A DNA stretch of 9,075 bases from a virus (lineage: Duplodnaviria; Heunggongvirae; Uroviricota; Caudoviricetes): the IMG/VR virus record IMGVR_UViG_2698536649_000010; one strand, given 5' to 3'. Numbering within the stretch: the first letter of the stretch is position 1; every line of letters begins with the position of its first letter. A model generated the notes under the pieces. The model searched no databases. It was not told the DNA's origin and was given only the letters and a program-made list of their open reading frames with translations. Positions 2,680 to 9,075 of this stretch are shown one piece after another. The translations under genes and the position numbers were made by a program.

Positions 2680-3214
2680 ACAGGTTTGTGAGGCTCTGGA
2701 TACCTGGGTATGCCGACCAGGAATGACACAGGAGCAGGCGACGATATTAATCACGGAAGCATTCTGGGCTCTGAAAGAACGCCCGAACATCGATGTTCAA
2801 CGCGTCACGTTTAATGATGGCGAGGTTGATCAACGGGCGCTGGGCGTTAACCGGGTGAAGATATTCGAACGCTGGAAAGCTATCGACACCAGAGATAAGC
2901 GTGACAAATTCACGGCGCTGATTCCGGCAATTATGGAGGCTATCCGGATCAGCGATTTCAGATTGTATTGTGAAATTACTGACGGAAAAAGCATTACGTA
3001 CATGATCGCCGGGTTAAACAAAGAATATGGCGATGTGGTGGAGTCCGGGCTGCTTTTTGCGGATCCAGTTGTTGTGGAACGTGAGACTGACGAGCTTATA
3101 GAAAAAGCTATTGCTTTCAAGCACGCGTATCGTCAGCAATACCAATATTACTTTGCAGATAAACAAATGTCTGCCAGGGGGTCGTATGAGTATCGATGCA
3201 CTACGATGGGCTAA
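2663..3214 (+). CDS. YdaT-like (CII-position) prophage regulatory protein
   Basis: ATG at 2663 overlaps the dicC stop; 183-aa product resembles recalled Rac YdaT in the central region (ERWKAIDTRDKRDKFTALIPAIMEAI versus WLKGETKTQREKIQKLIPAILAIL). Sits directly after the Cro-like gene. Confidence 0.55.
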   Translation: MKITTEQVCEALDTWVCRPGMTQEQATILITEAFWALKERPNIDVQRVTFNDGEVDQRALGVNRVKIFERWKAIDTRDKRDKFTALIPAIMEAIRISDFRLYCEITDGKSITYMIAGLNKEYGDVVESGLLFADPVVVERETDELIEKAIAFKHAYRQQYQYYFADKQMSARGSYEYRCTTMG

Positions 3215-3767
3215 AAAGGTGAAAACCGGCAGTTCATCCAGTAAGTCAGTATTGACCTGGCTTGCTGATATGTGCGGTGCCGATTTGTGTGCATACCCGT
3301 CTGTATCTGCACTGGCAGAAGTAACGGAACTGAACAAAAAGACTGTGCAGGACAGCTTACGACACCTGATGGAGATTGGGTTAATTGTTGATACCGGTGA
3401 GAGAAAAGGCAGAACAAAGCAAATTGTGGTGTACCGACTTATCGGTGTAGAAGAAAGTGTTGCCGAGCCTGAATACACCCAAAAACGGGAGTCTTTAAAG
3501 GTGGGTACAATTGGTGCTGTTAATAAAAACAGTACCGAAAATGGTTATGTTTCAGCACAAAACAGACCCAAAAACAGAACTCTTAGCTGCATGGAAAATA
3601 ACCAAAGACACCCAAATTTTCCATCAAAGACACCCAAAAACGGATCACGGAACCCAAAGGAACCCAAAGATCTAAACCCCACACATAACGCACGCGAGAG
3701 TGCTCCGACCAGTGAGCAGGAAGTTTTGTCGTTACAGGCAGCCCCCCTGTATTCCTGTATGGCCTGA
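3186..3767 (+). CDS. replication initiator, N-terminal winged-helix part (lambda O-like role); probably truncated by a frameshift
   Basis: ATG at 3186 with GGGGG SD. N-terminal HTH-like region, then a low-complexity linker encoded across iteron-like repeats. Frame ends at TGA 3765..3767 shortly after a C6 homopolymer (3742..3747); the following frame carries the DnaT-like continuation. Confidence 0.6.
   Translation: MSIDALRWAKKVKTGSSSSKSVLTWLADMCGADLCAYPSVSALAEVTELNKKTVQDSLRHLMEIGLIVDTGERKGRTKQIVVYRLIGVEESVAEPEYTQKRESLKVGTIGAVNKNSTENGYVSAQNRPKNRTLSCMENNQRHPNFPSKTPKNGSRNPKEPKDLNPTHNARESAPTSEQEVLSLQAAPLYSCMA
3475..3670 (+). repeat. iteron-like direct repeats (candidate replication origin) inside the initiator gene
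   Basis: Six copies of an ACCCAAA-core motif with core at 3477, 3566, 3609, 3631, 3652, 3662. Spacings of 43, 22, 21 and 10 bp approximate multiples of a helical turn. Position inside the linker-coding part of the initiator gene parallels ori-lambda inside O. Confidence 0.45.
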
Positions 3768-3790
3768 GCGAACCCATCGGAAAATTCCCG

Positions 3791-4225
3791 ATGAGCGATA
3801 GCTGGTATCCGTCACGGGATTTTCGACGACGGGCTGCGTTGTGGGGGATGGCTTTGCCGGAGACAGAATTTACACCTGCTGAACTTGCCGCCTTCCGGGA
3901 CTACTGGGCAGCGGAGGGGAAAGTGTTTACGCAGATTCAGTGGGAGCAGAAATTCGCCCGTCACGTAAATCACGTCAGGGCGCAGGTTAAACCAGTCAGC
4001 AAAGGGGTAAACCATGCAGCAGCACCAGGTGGCACCGCATCACGGGCAGTTCAGGAAATTCGGGCAGCACGTGAGCAGTGGGAACGTGAAAACGGATTTA
4101 TCAGCGACGGAAACGGCCTGGAAGCTGTGGGAACTCATGGGGGTGGTTTATTCGAACCGCTGGATCCAGAAGAACGGGGCCGCACCTTCGAAGCTCTGGA
4201 TTGCACAGATTGGCGCGATGACTGA
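3791..4225 (+). CDS. DnaT C-terminal-domain-like (primosomal protein I-like) ORF; probably the frameshifted C-terminal half of the initiator
   Basis: Product YPSRDFRRRAALWGMALPETEFTPAELAAFRDYWAAEGKVFTQIQWEQKFAR aligns with recalled E. coli DnaT ([55 protein letters not shown]). The similarity continues upstream of ATG 3791 in the same frame (EPIGKFPM versus VPMGKFAM), where no start codon exists. 3' end in this frame (4225) overlaps the P-like gene by 212 nt, so the true stop is uncertain. Confidence 0.5.
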   Translation: MSDSWYPSRDFRRRAALWGMALPETEFTPAELAAFRDYWAAEGKVFTQIQWEQKFARHVNHVRAQVKPVSKGVNHAAAPGGTASRAVQEIRAAREQWERENGFISDGNGLEAVGTHGGGLFEPLDPEERGRTFEALDCTDWRDD

Positions 4226-4679
4226 GCAGCAAATCCGGCAGGTCTGCCGCCAGTGCATGGACCGCTGCCGGGCGGGTGAAACATGGCCTCCGGACCTGGC
4301 TGAGTTTGTGGCACTGATTTCGAAAAGCGGAGCCAATCCATTCGGTCTGACGGTGGATGCTGTGATGGAGGAGTACCGCCGCTGGCGCAATGAGTCCTGG
4401 CGATACGACGGAAGTGATAAGTACCCGTGGTCTCAGCCTGTGCTGTATCACATTTGCCTCGAGATGCGTTCAAAGGGGATTGAGCGCCAGATGACCGAAG
4501 GGGAATTAAAACGGCTTGCAGAACGGCAACTGACGAAATGGGCAAAGCATGTTAGTAACGGCCTGAGCGTTCCGCCAGTCCGGCGACAACTGGCGGCCCC
4601 CAAACGCCCGTCGGGGCCAACGCCAATTGAGTTGCTGAAACAGGAATATGAACGCCGGAAAGCGGCCGGTTTTGTCTGA
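4014..4679 (+). CDS. lambda P-like replication protein (DnaB helicase loader)
   Basis: ATG at 4014 with AAGGGG SD 7 nt upstream; 221 aa. C-terminal half aligns with recalled lambda P (YDGSDKYPWSQPVLYHICLEMRSKGIERQMTEGELKRLAERQL versus YPDAESYPWKSNAHYWLVTNLYQNMRANALTDAELRRKAADEL). Confidence 0.75.
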   Translation: MQQHQVAPHHGQFRKFGQHVSSGNVKTDLSATETAWKLWELMGVVYSNRWIQKNGAAPSKLWIAQIGAMTEQQIRQVCRQCMDRCRAGETWPPDLAEFVALISKSGANPFGLTVDAVMEEYRRWRNESWRYDGSDKYPWSQPVLYHICLEMRSKGIERQMTEGELKRLAERQLTKWAKHVSNGLSVPPVRRQLAAPKRPSGPTPIELLKQEYERRKAAGFV

Positions 4680-4713
4680 GTTGAGAAGTAATTTTTACCG
4701 GGAGGAAAATTTA

Positions 4714-5448
4714 ATGGAAACCGTTTTTGACGCACTGAAAGCGATGGGAAAAGCCACGTCGGTATAGCTGGCTGCGCGACTTGATATCAGTCGTGAAGAA
4801 GTACTGAACGAGCTGTGGGAACTGAAAAAGGCTGGCTTCGTTGATAAAAGCGTATACACCTGGCGTGTGGCTGATAACAACGTTCAGCAGGAACAGCCAG
4901 CGCCAGAAGAAACCACCACGGCAACAGAAGCGAAAATCTCAGAGTGCGATTTAACCGCGACGATTGAACAACGCGGACCACAAACGGCGGATGAACTGGC
5001 TACGCTGTTCGGTACAACATCCCGCAAAGTTGCTTCAACGCTGGCAATGGCAATCAGCAAAGGTCGTCTGATTCGCGTAAACCAGAACGGTAAAATTCGT
5101 TACTGCATACCAGGTGATAATTTACCAGCAGAGCCGAAAGTTGAATCGGTAGCGGAAACCGATGGTAAAGCCTTTCCTCAGCCAGCCGGTGTTGCGTTAC
5201 CGGTACAGAAAGATGCAACACAGGAAGATATTAAAACAGAAACTGTGGCGGACATTGTGCAGTCGCTGCCATCGTTTACTGCAACGCGAGAAGATGATTT
5301 GATTTTGCCATCGCTGCATATGGCAAATCGCGAACTGCGTAGGGCGAAGAATCATGTCCAGAAGTGGGAGCGAGTCTGCGCCGCGCTGCGGGAGCTGAAC
5401 AAGCACCGGGATATGGTTGCCGGGATTTGTCGGAAGTCCGGGCAATGA
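4714..5448 (+). pseudogene. double winged-helix protein gene interrupted by an in-frame amber codon
   Basis: ATG at 4714 with GGAGG SD 8 nt upstream. Codon 18 is TAG (4765..4767) and the same frame continues open to 5448. The N-terminal repeat ([40 protein letters not shown]) and a second repeat ([38 protein letters not shown]) both look like winged-helix units. First possible restart downstream is GTG 4867. Confidence 0.55.
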
Positions 5449-5483
5449 GCGGATGGTGCAGGCCTGAAATCATGATACTAACA

Positions 5484-6056
5484 ATGAAGGTAAAATGCAT
5501 CGGCAGTCTGATTGGTCGTAGTGAGGCGGCGGTCAGGATGAAAGCCCAGGTTAAGGGAATAAGCCTGATTCTGCGGGGTGATTTTCACCAGTCAACAAAA
5601 TATCCGTAGCGCGATAACGGTCAAAAATTATGGCGCTGACACTTTTGTGCCACTGGAGATGACTGTACCTAAGTTCAGGGGAGAAGAACACGTCCGGTGG
5701 GATGGTCGGGCCAGATTTAAAGGGCAGGTCATGGCTCCAGCCTGTACGCTGGCAATGGAGGCTGCCTGGCGGGAAATTGATATGGGAACCACGCCACTCA
5801 GGGATTTACTGCCGGTCCAGAGAATAAATTCCTGTTACGGTTACACCACTGTGATCTTGCAAGTGCAGGAAAGTAGGTCTACACGGTAACGCGAGTGCGT
5901 GTAACTTTTGATGTCATTCCCGTAGAAACACCGGACAAATTTTCGCTGACAGGTCATGCAGAAGGTATAAATCTGCAGATTATGGACAATTACGGATATC
6001 CGGCAAGAGCCGGAAAAAGCATGCCGCCTCTAATTCTCAGTGGAAGATGGACTTGA
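5484..6056 (+). pseudogene. decayed fimbrial major-subunit-like gene remnant (chaperone-usher type)
   Basis: Three successive frames carry fimbrial-like segments: a signal-like MKVKCIGSLIG (from 5484), then GRARFKGQVMAPACTL...INSC (5578..5889; compare FimA GGTVHFKGEVVNAACAV...LNDC), then GINLQIMDNYG (5895..6056; compare FimA GVQILDRTG). At least two frame changes are needed, and the usual C-terminal strand is missing where the AT-rich block begins. Confidence 0.35.
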
Positions 6057-6307
6057 TTATACTCATTGCATTGTCAGAAATAGTTATCCATTAAAGGCTG
6101 GCTATTCCAAACAGGATGTTGATTACAAAAATGTAATCAACATGTAAGGTTTATACTCTTCAATATGCGTATAATTTTCCTTATTTTGTTGACTTTAAAT
6201 AACAAGCTATGCACGAGGTAAAGTCGGATAAGTTTATCTGGATGTAATATATATTATTTGTAGTGTTTATAACTTTATTTCATGATAACCAATAAAAGGA
6301 GTTTTTT
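6057..6307 (+). promoter_or_regulatory. AT-rich upstream region of the binding-protein moron (promoter not resolved)
   Basis: Strongly AT-rich compared with flanking phage genes. Contains a 10-bp inverted repeat GTTGATTACA-AAAA-TGTAATCAAC (6118..6141), a TATAAT hexamer at 6170..6175, TTGACT at 6189..6194, and a strong SD AAGGAG at 6296..6301 before ATG 6308. Confidence 0.35.
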
Positions 6308-7066
6308 ATGAGGAACATAATGGCAGGTTTTTTAATATTCCTGTCTTCTGCTGCTTATGCTGATATCAATCTGTATGGTCCTGGTGGCCCGCATACAGCC
6401 TTGCTTGATGCAGCCAAACTTTATGCCGAAAAAACAGGTATTATAGTGAACGTTCATTACGGCCCACAGAACAAATGGAATGAAGATGCCAAAAAAAATG
6501 CAGATATCTTGTTTGGCGCATCAGAACAATCTGCTCTGGCTATCATTCGGGACCATAAAGACAGCTTCAGTGAAAAAGATATTCAGCCTCTTTATCTGCG
6601 AAAAAGTATTTTACTGGTAAAGAAAGGTAATCCTAAAAATATCCGGAGTATTGACGACCTGACCAGACCTGGGATTGGCGTAATTGTTAATGATGGTGGT
6701 GGTACCAGTAATACATCAGGCACTGGCGTCTGGGAAGATATTGCCGGACGTAAAGGGAATATAGAAACTGTCGCCGCAATCCGAAAAAATATTATTTTAT
6801 ATGCGCCCAATAGCGGAACTGCACGTAAGGCTCTTGAGAATCAGCCTGGAGCAGATGTCTGGATAACCTGGGCTGACTGGGCAGCCAGTAATCCAGAAAT
6901 TGGTGATGTCGTGGAAATAGCGCCAGACTACGTGATATGGCGTGATATGAACATTACAGTACGTCAGGATGCAAATGATGAAACCCGTCGATTTGCAGAA
7001 TGGCTACAAACCGATGAAGCGGCGCCTGCATTCAAAAAATATGGCTGGACCAGGAAAGGCACTTGA
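6308..7066 (+). CDS. secreted periplasmic substrate-binding protein, ModA-like fold; orphan (no transporter genes adjacent)
   Basis: 252-aa product with N-terminal signal peptide (MRNIMAGFLIFLSSAAYA then DINLYG). Resembles recalled E. coli ModA at several points (ADILFGASEQSA versus ADLFISADQKW; C-terminal RFAEWLQTDEAAPAFKKYGW versus AFYDYLKGPQAAEIFKRYGF). AT-rich codon usage. Confidence 0.8.
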   Translation: MRNIMAGFLIFLSSAAYADINLYGPGGPHTALLDAAKLYAEKTGIIVNVHYGPQNKWNEDAKKNADILFGASEQSALAIIRDHKDSFSEKDIQPLYLRKSILLVKKGNPKNIRSIDDLTRPGIGVIVNDGGGTSNTSGTGVWEDIAGRKGNIETVAAIRKNIILYAPNSGTARKALENQPGADVWITWADWAASNPEIGDVVEIAPDYVIWRDMNITVRQDANDETRRFAEWLQTDEAAPAFKKYGWTRKGT

Positions 7067-7067
7067 C

Positions 7068-7098
7068 ATCCTCGTCCTTCAGGACGTGGATTCTTTTT
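7068..7098 (+). terminator. intrinsic terminator of the binding-protein gene
   Basis: Begins 2 nt after the TGA stop: stem ATCCTCGTCC / GGACGTGGAT (9 of 10 pairs), loop TTCA, followed by TCTTTTTCC. Confidence 0.6.
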
Positions 7099-7220
7099 CC
7101 GGATGCCGCGCCAGCGGCATGTAGGGGCAGCTCACAAAACGGAAAAAATTGTACGCTAAGCCTCGCCAGGTGAACTGAATTCATTCCGATATGGGAATTC
7201 CCATATCGGGCGAAAACGGT

Positions 7221-7249
7221 TTGCTGTAACGGCAGAGTTAAGTAGGATT
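7221..7249 (+). promoter_or_regulatory. candidate promoter of the hok-type mRNA
   Basis: -35 TTGCTG (7221..7226), 17-bp spacer, -10 TAGGAT (7244..7249); predicted start near 7256, giving a 5' end GGUGCUUGAGGCUAUCUGCCUC that resembles the 5' end of plasmid R1 hok mRNA as I recall it. Confidence 0.3.
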
Positions 7250-7302
7250 GCTGCGGGTGCTTGAGGCTATCTGCCTCGGGCATGAACACCAACGGCAGAT
7301 AG

Positions 7303-7353
7303 ATAAAAGCCCCACCCGACTATAAATCGAAGTGAGGCCCCTATATGCTCGTC
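7303..7353 (-). ncRNA. candidate Sok-like antisense RNA
   Basis: Minus-strand hairpin (7309..7339, stem with two G-U pairs) followed by a U-run (7308..7303). Possible promoter on the minus strand: -35 TTGACC (+7383..7388), 17-bp spacer, weak -10 CAATCT (+7360..7365). It is antisense to the hok leader around the mok start, where Sok acts in known hok/sok loci. Confidence 0.3.
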
Positions 7354-7401
7354 ACATATAGATTGCCTCTTACGGACCGAAAGGTCAAGGAGAAGCAGGC
7401 T

Positions 7402-7458
7402 ATGAAGCAGCAAAAGGCGATGTTAAAAGGCGGGGGAGAAATCCCTCGCCACCTCTGA
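7402..7458 (+). pseudogene. hok: truncated hok toxin ORF (18 codons; HokD-like N-terminus, transmembrane segment absent)
   Basis: Encodes MKQQKAMLKGGGEIPRHL then stop. The first 8 residues match recalled HokD/RelF (MKQQKAMLIALIVICLTV...); the hydrophobic helix and C-terminal domain are missing in all three frames before the terminator, implying an internal deletion of roughly 100 to 130 bp. Confidence 0.55.
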
Positions 7459-7490
7459 TGTGTCAGGCATCCTCAACGCACCCGCACTTA

Positions 7491-7516
7491 ACCCGCTTCG
7501 GCGGGTTTTTGTTTTT
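7491..7516 (+). terminator. intrinsic terminator of the hok-type mRNA
   Basis: Stem ACCCGC / GCGGGT with loop TTCG, followed by TTTTTGTTTTT. Confidence 0.7.
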
Positions 7517-7641
7517 ATTTTCAACGCGTTTGAAGTTCCGGACGGCGCCGGAATAGAATCAAAAATACTTAAGTAGCGCGCAGGGAGAAGAGGGATGGAC
7601 CCCGAACAGGGGAGTGCTATTTATCTGGAAGGATTCTGTTG

Positions 7642-7899
7642 ATGAGAATCGAAGAATTACGTGAAATTTTTAGTGAAGATGGCCTCTATACTGTGCGCGT
7701 TGAGAAGGGCGCTATTGTCAGCCACTGCCGTATTAAATGTTTACAGTCTCAACAAAGGAAGAGTGGAGCTGCGTTAATTCATTTTGTGGATGGGCTTGTG
7801 ACGGATGGTTTTATTTTGCGTGCAAATGAATTTGTCACATCGTTGCCGTCTCTGAAAGAAGCTGGGATTAAGGCTGGTTTTTCTGCTTTTGAAGATTAG
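7642..7899 (+). CDS. hypothetical 85-aa protein
   Basis: ATG at 7642 (the ORF track begins one codon earlier at TTG 7639) with GGAAGGA SD upstream; possible promoter TTGAAG-18-TAGAAT at 7530..7559. No homolog recognised; it occupies roughly the position of rem in K-12 Qin. Confidence 0.5.
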   Translation: MRIEELREIFSEDGLYTVRVEKGAIVSHCRIKCLQSQQRKSGAALIHFVDGLVTDGFILRANEFVTSLPSLKEAGIKAGFSAFED

Positions 7900-7968
7900 T
7901 GAATTCATCTACAATTCAGCGCAGGGCTGAACCCCTGTTGAGTAACACTGTGCCACCGGAGAAAGCCG

Positions 7969-8247
7969 ATGGCGCAAAATTCCAGACTACACAATTCTGA
8001 TAATTCAGCCGTCTTTGCCAGCAGGCACGGGCGGCGTTCTCATGCATTCAAATCTGACTGGTTCCGGCACGCCCCATGCACTGAAGAACAGGCCGAATGG
8101 CTGATTCAGAACTACCGCAGACGTGGGTATGAGTTTAGGAAAGCCCTCAGCCTCGATTATCGTCACTGGATAATCTACGTCAGGCTGCCGTACTCCGAGC
8201 GCCCACCGCGTCCGTCCCGCACATTCCAGCAACGCATCTGGAGGTAA
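7969..8247 (+). CDS. hypothetical 92-aa basic protein
   Basis: ATG at 7969 with GGAG SD 7 nt upstream; its stop TAA (8245..8247) abuts the GTG start of the next gene, suggesting translational coupling. No homolog recognised. Confidence 0.5.
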   Translation: MAQNSRLHNSDNSAVFASRHGRRSHAFKSDWFRHAPCTEEQAEWLIQNYRRRGYEFRKALSLDYRHWIIYVRLPYSERPPRPSRTFQQRIWR

Positions 8248-8248
8248 C

Positions 8249-9075
8249 GTGCGGGTATTACTTCGACCTGTTCCGGTACCGGAACTTGGGTTGGTGGTCC
8301 TTAAACCAGGCCGTGAATCCATGCAGGTATTCCATAACCCTCGAGTGCTTGTGGAGCCGGAGCCGAAAAGCATGCGCGGTCTGCCGTCCGGCATCGTCCC
8401 TGCCGTTCGCCAGCCGCTGGCGGAGGATAAATCATTACTGCCGTTTTTCAGCAATGAGCGTGTGATTCGTGCTGTTGGTGGCGCTGGTGCACTGTCTGAC
8501 TGGCTGTTGCGTCATGTCAAATCCTGCCAGTGGCCTCATGGTGACTATCATCACAGTGAAACCGTTATTCACCGTTATGGTACCGGCGCAATGGTGTTGT
8601 GCTGGCACTGCGACAACCAGCTGCGTGACCAGACATCCGAATCACTCGAGCAACTTGCTCATCAAAACCTGTCAGCATGGATGATTGACGTCATCGGTCA
8701 CGCAATAAGCGGTACGCAGGAGCGTGAATTATCTCTGGCTGAATTATCCTGGTGGGCGGTCCGCAATCAGGTGGCGGACGCGCTACCGGAAGCGGTATTA
8801 CGTCGTTCGCTGGGGTTGCGTGCGGAAAAAATCCGCTCAATGTACCGTGAAAGCGACATCGTACCGGGAGAGCAGACCGCCACCATCATACTGAAGCAGC
8901 GCACAAAAAATCTTGCGCCGCTGCCTCACGCCCACCAGCAAAACCCACCACAGGAAAAGACGGTGGTCAGCATTGCCGTTGATCCGGAGTCTCCGGAATC
9001 CTTCATGAAACGACCTAAACGTCGCCGCTGGGTAAATGAGAAATACACACGCTGGGTAAAGACACAGCCGTGTGC
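8249..9075 (+). CDS. DUF968 / YdfU-like nin-region protein, 3'-partial (runs off the window)
   Basis: GTG at 8249 with GGAGG SD (8240..8244); the frame is open to the end of the window (275 codons), which is why it is absent from the complete-ORF track. Cys/His-rich motif HVKSCQWPHGDYHH...LCWHCDN. Family assignment is from memory of Qin YdfU and is tentative. Confidence 0.6.
   Translation, partial: MRVLLRPVPVPELGLVVLKPGRESMQVFHNPRVLVEPEPKSMRGLPSGIVPAVRQPLAEDKSLLPFFSNERVIRAVGGAGALSDWLLRHVKSCQWPHGDYHHSETVIHRYGTGAMVLCWHCDNQLRDQTSESLEQLAHQNLSAWMIDVIGHAISGTQERELSLAELSWWAVRNQVADALPEAVLRRSLGLRAEKIRSMYRESDIVPGEQTATIILKQRTKNLAPLPHAHQQNPPQEKTVVSIAVDPESPESFMKRPKRRRWVNEKYTRWVKTQPC

Follow-up and report, generated by a model that had tools for sequence, protein, structure and literature searches.

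A prophage hokD-type hok/sok locus that retains its RNA control elements and lacks the toxin core: a probable recent null allele

The hok/sok (parB) locus of plasmid R1 is the founding type I toxin-antitoxin system. Loci of the hok type are frequently found to be inactivated in sequenced strains, the five loci of Escherichia coli K-12 being an example. Pedersen and Gerdes are said to have reported in 1999 that hokA, hokC and hokE of K-12 are disrupted by IS elements, and hokB by point mutations; the lesion described below differs from these, being an internal deletion of the coding sequence. An enrichment of hok genes in prophages has been documented (bioRxiv 10.1101/2025.08.07.668861). [quoted passage not shown] 2021, PMC8621323).

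The DNA considered here, referred to throughout as the window, is a stretch of 9,075 nucleotides, and the locus of interest occupies positions 7221–7516. This interval lies in the early region of an EHEC/O157-type lambdoid prophage, with paa as its upstream neighbour and a rem-like gene downstream. The original prediction, made from the sequence alone, had identified the interval as a hok/sok locus, and that assignment is borne out. Rfam family RF01794 ('sok') matches positions 7255–7404 on the + strand over the full length of the model (103.9 bits, against a gathering threshold of 59; E=2e–23), and is the sole Rfam family above threshold across the whole window. In addition, O157:H7 genomes carry the annotation 'hokD, type I toxin-antitoxin system toxin' at the orthologous position. 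The intact hokD-type locus of O157:H7 and other EHEC (NZ_AP018488.1, 2020479–2020634; Hok WP_032287685.1) occupies the same position, in the order paa, hok/sok, rem-like ORF, DUF968 and rusA.

By descent, the window locus belongs to the hok/sok family and, within it, to the prophage hokD lineage; it is a pseudogene and not a functional member. Systems of this kind are already known, and the locus represents no new class of element; the allele itself is a pseudogene with a single occurrence. The reading preferred here, to which a probability of about 0.65 is attached, is that the region is a hokD-type hok/mok/sok type I toxin-antitoxin locus in a paa-carrying lambdoid prophage of EHEC/O157-type E. 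coli, in which a single deletion has produced a very recent, private null allele. Like hokW-sokW, it is a prophage-borne hok/sok locus of the EHEC O157 type; compared by description, hokW-sokW differs in residing in another prophage, Sp5, and in having an intact toxin.

The match to RF01794 is on the hok-sense strand, and the final three positions of the model are the hok AUG, so that the model describes the hok leader. The real Sok RNA would be the complement of the matched segment. The Sok-encoding strand itself scored only 15.2 bits against RF01794, at a shifted position (7202–7313). Because it is the hok-sense strand that is matched, annotations transferred from the model would put the antitoxin label on the wrong strand.

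The elements of the locus were mapped from the element logic established for R1 hok (Le Rhun et al. 2022, PMC9841398) combined with RNA folds, and are listed in Table 1.

Table 1. Mapped and predicted features of the locus and its surroundings, in window coordinates
Feature	Position	Strand	Sequence, composition and basis
Upstream gene order			cI/cro-like repressors, ydaT, O (DnaT-like), P, DUF1627, fimbrial pseudogene, paa (6308–7066)
Putative hok mRNA promoter	7221–7248	+	–35 TTGCTG (7221–7226), 16-nt spacer, –10 TAGGAT (7243–7248); read from sequence
tac, 5′ end of hok mRNA	7255–7266	+	Rfam model start; folds
5′ hairpin	7267–7302	+	CTATCTGCC ... GGCAGATAG; arms 7267–7275 and 7294–7302; folds, inverted repeat, Rfam consensus helix
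Predicted Sok RNA	about 7353 to 7303	–	~50 nt: single-stranded 5′ tail, hairpin, U-run
ucb, anti-SD of mok	7307–7313	+	AAGCCCC; folds
mok SD and start	7334–7347	+	GAGG (7334–7337), ATG (7345–7347); sequence, in frame with hok
Putative Sok promoter	7360–7388	–	–35 TTGACC (reverse complement of 7383–7388); –10 CAATCT (reverse complement of 7360–7365)
dcb	7365–7369		GCCTC; overlapped by putative Sok promoter
hok SD and truncated hok′ ORF	7388–7458	+	SD AGGAG (7388–7392), ATG at 7402, TGA (7456–7458)
Deletion junction	7426–7428	no strand	alignments to O157 PV15-279, F3113 and six other alleles
k-mer proposed for deletion-allele screening			GATGTTAAAAGGCGGGGGAG
3′ stem-loop	7429–7450	+	GGCGGGGGA-GAAA-TCCCTCGCC; 9-bp helix in all folds
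fbi (fold-back inhibitory element)	7471–7483	+	pairs with tac in window and intact-reference folds
hok mRNA intrinsic terminator	7490–7516	+	terminator scan: 7-bp stem (7490–7507) with 5 G-C pairs, then T-run
Downstream gene order			rem-like ORF (7639–7899), DUF968, rusA

Several features of this arrangement are shared with R1 hok/sok: the end-pairing of tac with fbi, the masking of the mok SD by ucb, the SDmok/dcb stem, the in-frame coupling of mok and hok, and the protective 3′ stem-loop (PMC9841398). The putative Sok promoter would overlap dcb as in R1, and the predicted Sok RNA would likewise be antisense to the mok start. The window locus differs from that of R1 in being prophage-borne and not plasmid-borne, in having a shorter ucb-SD hairpin than most alleles, and in encoding no toxin. 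A blastn search for the hok/sok locus of plasmid R1 itself found it too divergent to align; the matches obtained were all of the hokD type.

It had been proposed that alignment with intact hok loci would map the lesion in the toxin gene, and this proved to be so, since one net 136-nt deletion explains the truncation. Against O157:H7 PV15-279, the locus is 100% identical apart from one gap, with 136 nt net missing between window positions 7426 and 7427, and the gap was likewise single in the alignments to eight alleles. The leader, Sok region, 3′ UTR and terminator are shared with the intact O157:H7 locus, and identity is 100% on both sides of the lesion. The one further difference is at position 7427, which is A in the window and C in the reference; this A matches neither flank of the intact allele. 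Six further alleles, which include a plasmid copy and K-12 hokD, all possess the full CDS, and none has an A at the position equivalent to 7427. To judge from these alignments, the event is best seen either as the loss of 137 nt with the gain of one A or as a 136-nt deletion accompanied by a substitution.

The deletion removed hok/mok codons 9–51, the stop codon and 5–6 nt of the 3′ UTR. Neither microhomology nor a direct repeat was found at the breakpoints, in the allele alignments or by repeat search. Slippage between two AGGCG motifs was considered as a route to the deletion and rejected, as the junction that it predicts differs from the one observed.

The toxin ORF had been described as cut to 18 codons with no transmembrane segment, and translation from the ATG at 7402 agrees, giving MKQQKAMLKGGGEIPRHL and then a stop codon. 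The first eight codons of this frame (hok′) are identical to those of intact HokD, and no further Hok codons are left; past the lesion, the frame reads through the 3′ UTR as far as its TGA. In the intact allele, by comparison, a 51-aa Hok is encoded, MKQQKAMLIALIVICLIVIVTALVTRKDLCEVRIRTGQTEVAVFTAYEPEE. The mok frame is shortened to 37 aa in the window (ORF 7345–7458), as against the 70-aa HOK_GEF ORF called in the reference genomes. The intact 70-aa frame scored 75.9 bits against Pfam HOK_GEF, and no match to that family was obtained with the 37-aa Mok′ or the 18-aa Hok′; the 37-aa Mok′ matched no Pfam family at all.

Toxins of the Hok/Gef type are about 50 aa long and have an N-terminal transmembrane helix; no such product is encoded at the window locus, and a search of the locus in any frame for an alternative Hok-like ORF found none. 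As translated, Hok′ and Mok′ are hydrophilic and have no membrane helix. Because that helix is gone, the window locus should be unable to kill, and post-segregational killing by it is predicted to be absent, the toxin having been deleted. Judged by its coding content, it would no longer work as a module for addiction, abortive infection or assistance of lysis. The recovery of an intact ORF of roughly 50 codons by correction of one indel had been raised as an outcome that would tell against a disarmed locus. One part of that outcome holds, in that a single event explains everything; the other does not, as 136 nt are missing and the lesion is not a frameshift, and the window itself lacks the sequence needed to rebuild an intact ORF.

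The lesion at 7426/7427 interrupts none of the mapped control elements. Those upstream of it are the putative hok promoter, tac, ucb, the SD and start codon of mok, the predicted Sok gene, dcb, and the SD and start codon of hok; those downstream are the 3′ stem-loop, fbi and terminator. As the hok start region lies on one side of the breakpoints and the 3′ stem-loop on the other, all of the cis-acting RNA elements survive. This agrees with the claim that the control architecture is complete, for which a 5′ hairpin, a mok start, a Sok-like hairpin with its U-run and a terminator had been cited, all of which were found. As far as sequence and folding show, the RNA regulatory architecture is indeed complete, with both promoters being weak matches. 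The mok reading frame has an SD of its own, with its ATG 7 nt past the GAGG, and overlaps hok. Among the alleles fetched, fbi is near-invariant, its sole variable position being the bulged base.

The Rfam model starts at 7255, 7 nt downstream of the putative hok promoter. The putative Sok promoter hexamers are found at the R1-equivalent position, in that the Sok promoter of R1 is located in dcb (PMC9841398); the –10 hexamer (CAATCT) is weak. A consensus promoter scan with a 9/12 threshold reported neither the hok nor the Sok promoter. As both fall below the threshold of the scan, they are assigned by position only.

The folding of the RNA was predicted for the window and for an intact reference. 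The complementarity that had been noted between the two ends of the locus (7252–7266 with 7471–7486) was recovered in two forms. It contains an exact 9-mer (7252–7260 with 7478–7486) and, with one bulge, provides a tac-fbi helix of 12 pairs (7255–7266 with 7471–7483), which closes both the MFE and the centroid folds of the 257-nt window RNA. The MFE of this RNA is –106.3 kcal/mol, as compared with a mean of –76.2 for shuffled sequences (z=–6.5), and none of 200 shuffles was as good. The intact reference RNA, of about 392–393 nt, was predicted to share both this 5′ domain and the closure by tac-fbi. In the full-length fold of the window RNA, positions 7309–7315 pair with the mok SD region.

When the 3′ end was trimmed in silico (7469–7511 removed), tac was predicted to switch its pairing to 7307–7313 (ucb), in the window RNA and the intact reference alike. 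A switch from tac-fbi to tac-ucb pairing has been described for R1 hok, in which the equivalent of the 3′ stem-loop is the protective hairpin that ends the processed mRNA (PMC9841398). For the processed reference RNA, the centroid fold contains the SDmok/dcb stem. Unlike the reference, the processed window RNA is predicted in its MFE fold to pair the mok SD with a new partner in the 3′ UTR, and the accessibility of the mok SD in the processed window RNA may thus differ from that in the reference.

On the opposite strand, a hairpin with a U-run is predicted from about 7344 to 7303 (–22.1 kcal/mol; z=–3.8). The predicted Sok RNA that contains it is complementary to the mok SD/start region, and its ends are placed from the position of the putative Sok promoter. 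The leader of the window and of O157 is a distinct variant: its ucb-to-mok-SD hairpin is about 21 nt shorter than in most other hokD-type alleles, and its Sok –10 hexamer, CAATCT, has one T fewer than the TAATCT of the other hokD-type alleles. This leader variant was found at full length in 607 complete genomes.

The intact counterpart of the window locus is common. An intact 51-codon hokD at the same locus, with 100% flank identity, was found in hundreds of E. coli genomes, and the exact locus in more than 550 complete genomes. Strain F3113 and the window have identical sequences over 4723–7426 and 7428–9075, that is, over 2.7 kb upstream and 1.6 kb downstream of the lesion. Intact hok was also present in all 16 of the distinct contexts listed for contigs that share the window Paa or P protein, and none of the contexts listed was an exact match to the window.

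The deletion junction, on the other hand, was found in the window alone among the collections searched. A 141-nt query spanning it matched 4,696 of 5,426 complete E. coli genomes by megablast, and in that set all of the best matches were in two pieces spanning 277 nt, as expected of the intact allele, which leaves 0 of 5,426 genomes with the junction. Megablast of the junction against phage and plasmid collections again gave split matches and did not find the deletion, and exact scans for both the AAAA and the AAA form gave 0 hits in the GTDB species representatives, IMG/VR and JGI metagenomes. An exact look-up of the 37-aa Mok′ returned no record, which is weak evidence, as so short an ORF may never be gene-called.

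With flanks identical to those of intact alleles and a junction that is present in no other genome, the data argue for a very recent, private null allele. Two outcomes had been envisaged for the locus, namely a recently disarmed addiction module and an element persisting as RNA only. The first fits, the flanks being 100% identical to those of intact alleles. The second finds no such support: as the junction is in none of the collections searched, there is no sign of retention or spread of an RNA-only form. 'Recently disarmed' is accordingly the favoured description, and the best reading of the surviving RNA architecture is that there has been too little time for its decay, not that it has been kept by selection.

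The deletion is known from one sequence record alone, and the base that matches neither flank and the lack of microhomology count against reading it as a real deletion. It might instead be an artefact of assembly, consensus or cloning, for example if a toxic segment had been lost from a clone or error-prone long reads had been mis-assembled, and the real strain would then have an intact hokD-type locus. In favour of an artefact, the junction was found nowhere else although more than 550 complete genomes share the exact locus. The extra A at 7427 also lengthens an A-run, and this is the same type of error as the homopolymer indels seen elsewhere in the window.

Those indels are private to the window with respect to all relatives. 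Single nucleotides are missing from a T-run at 1872 and from a C-run at 3741, and the latter loss splits the gene for a 346-aa DnaT-like replication protein (about 3185–4225) into ORFs 3111–3767 and 3791–4225. Over the 56 nt of 4667–4722, where the P gene ends and the next gene begins, the window has a further private cluster, made up of five transitions and three 1-nt homopolymer indels. Among the 5,426 complete E. coli genomes, this patch was matched at 97.4% at best, whereas its surroundings were 99.9–100% identical. The cluster reflects either poor sequencing quality in this patch or an unusual grouping of mutations. Together with the private indels it lowers the trust that can be placed in the window sequence, the hok deletion included, and is a further point in favour of an artefact.

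Other observations weigh the opposite way. The loss of 136 nt with no repeat to collapse would be an atypical read or assembly error, and the remainder of 4723–9075 is error-free in comparison with the references. Moreover, inactivation of hok and decay of this prophage, as seen in IS1203, frameshifts and a fimbrial pseudogene, are both common in nature. On balance an artefact is considered unlikely, though it is the rival explanation to be taken most seriously, and a genuine deletion is preferred.

As to the decay of the prophage, other strains have different frameshifts, or IS1203, in the same O/DnaT-like gene, and these distinct lesions across strains indicate that the replication module of the prophage has been decaying repeatedly. 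Just upstream of paa, 5614–6147 corresponds to a pseudogene described in O157 references as 'fimbrial protein, frameshifted; internal stop'; here the window is identical to F3113.

If the deletion is genuine, the toxin-less locus might be under selection as a working RNA-only module, either with Sok serving in trans as an antidote to related hok mRNAs or with hok′ as a decoy that soaks up Sok. Every mapped RNA element has been spared precisely, and the predicted switch survives. O157-type genomes contain several related hok leaders: up to three sites in one genome match this leader, and up to nine the hok region, so that targets in trans plausibly exist. In O157 Sakai, hokW-sokW provides a paralogous locus, also in a prophage, that is functional (PMC8621323). 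Against this, the allele occurs once, with zero divergence in its flanks, and there has been no time for selection to show; neither the junction nor a clean variant of it was present in any other genome searched. Nor is the sparing of the elements by chance very improbable, given a 136-nt deletion in a 392-nt transcript in which the elements are clustered at both ends.

Selection for an RNA-only function is therefore thought very unlikely. Its more specific versions, in which an orphan Sok would neutralize hok mRNAs from incoming prophages or plasmids (as a form of anti-addiction or immunity), or a hok′ decoy would tune Sok for paralogs such as hokW-sokW, are rated as highly improbable.

Under the preferred reading, that of a recent null allele, the course of events may be proposed as follows. 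One non-homologous deletion (136 nt net, or 137 nt if the A at 7427 is counted as an insertion) would have stripped out the toxin core. A hok′ mRNA of about 255 nt would still be transcribed and held closed through tac-fbi pairing, and its 3′ end would slowly be trimmed to the 7429–7450 hairpin. The trimmed mRNA would then refold to the tac-ucb form, by which the mok SD and the Sok target would be exposed. Sok RNA would still be produced from the opposite strand and would still pair with its target, while translation would yield only the 18-aa Hok′ and the 37-aa Mok′, with no killing of the cell. Production of both hok′ RNA and Sok thus probably continues, as does their interaction, but without consequence.

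The locus may also be compared with hokD (relF) of the Qin prophage in K-12, which is of the same hokD lineage. The shared parts of the CDS, the 3′ UTR, fbi and the terminator are nearly identical in the two, and rem lies downstream in K-12. Upstream, relB-relE directly precedes K-12 hokD, and homology to the window begins only about 14 nt before the hok ATG; K-12 hokD is therefore without the promoter, tac, ucb, mok start and sok. This confirms a contrast drawn in the original prediction between K-12 hokD, with a kept toxin ORF and a lost control region, and the reverse situation in the window. K-12 hokD keeps the 51-codon ORF, fbi and the terminator, whereas the window keeps the upstream control elements and has lost the ORF, so that the lesions are mirror images and the two loci are complementary halves of one ancestral locus. 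The pair provides a teaching case, in that the halves of such a locus can be lost independently.

In terms of annotation, the locus should be labelled as a hok pseudogene with an intact sok/leader, and should be neither overlooked nor called a toxin; it matters little otherwise. If the deletion is real, however, the strain represents a natural Sok-plus, Hok-minus control in an otherwise isogenic prophage, which could be used to test the role of prophage hok/sok during induction and the action of Sok in trans on paralogs.

Some minor features were observed in the sequences around the locus. A perfect 24-nt palindrome with no spacer, CCGATATGGGAA/TTCCCATATCGG, is located at 7186–7209, 12 nt upstream of the putative hok –35 hexamer, and is unchanged in the O157 references; it could bind a protein or form a hairpin that insulates hok from paa. 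A 12-nt inverted repeat with 92% complementarity connects 7117–7128, in the paa-hok spacer, with 7337–7348, at the mok SD-start, the two arms being 208 nt apart, and is probably due to chance.

The RNA known as isrK is an Hfq-binding sRNA of a Salmonella prophage island. A sub-threshold match to Rfam isrK was obtained with the hok 3′ UTR at 7430–7511 (24.9 bits, as against a gathering threshold of 50; E=0.003); it may be due to chance or may point to a relationship between isrK-like sRNAs and the 3′ ends of hok. Finally, the only sigma-70-like site reported within 7100–7650 is at 7530–7559 (TTGAAG, 18-nt spacer, TAGAAT), between the hok terminator, which it closely follows, and the rem-like ORF that begins at 7639.
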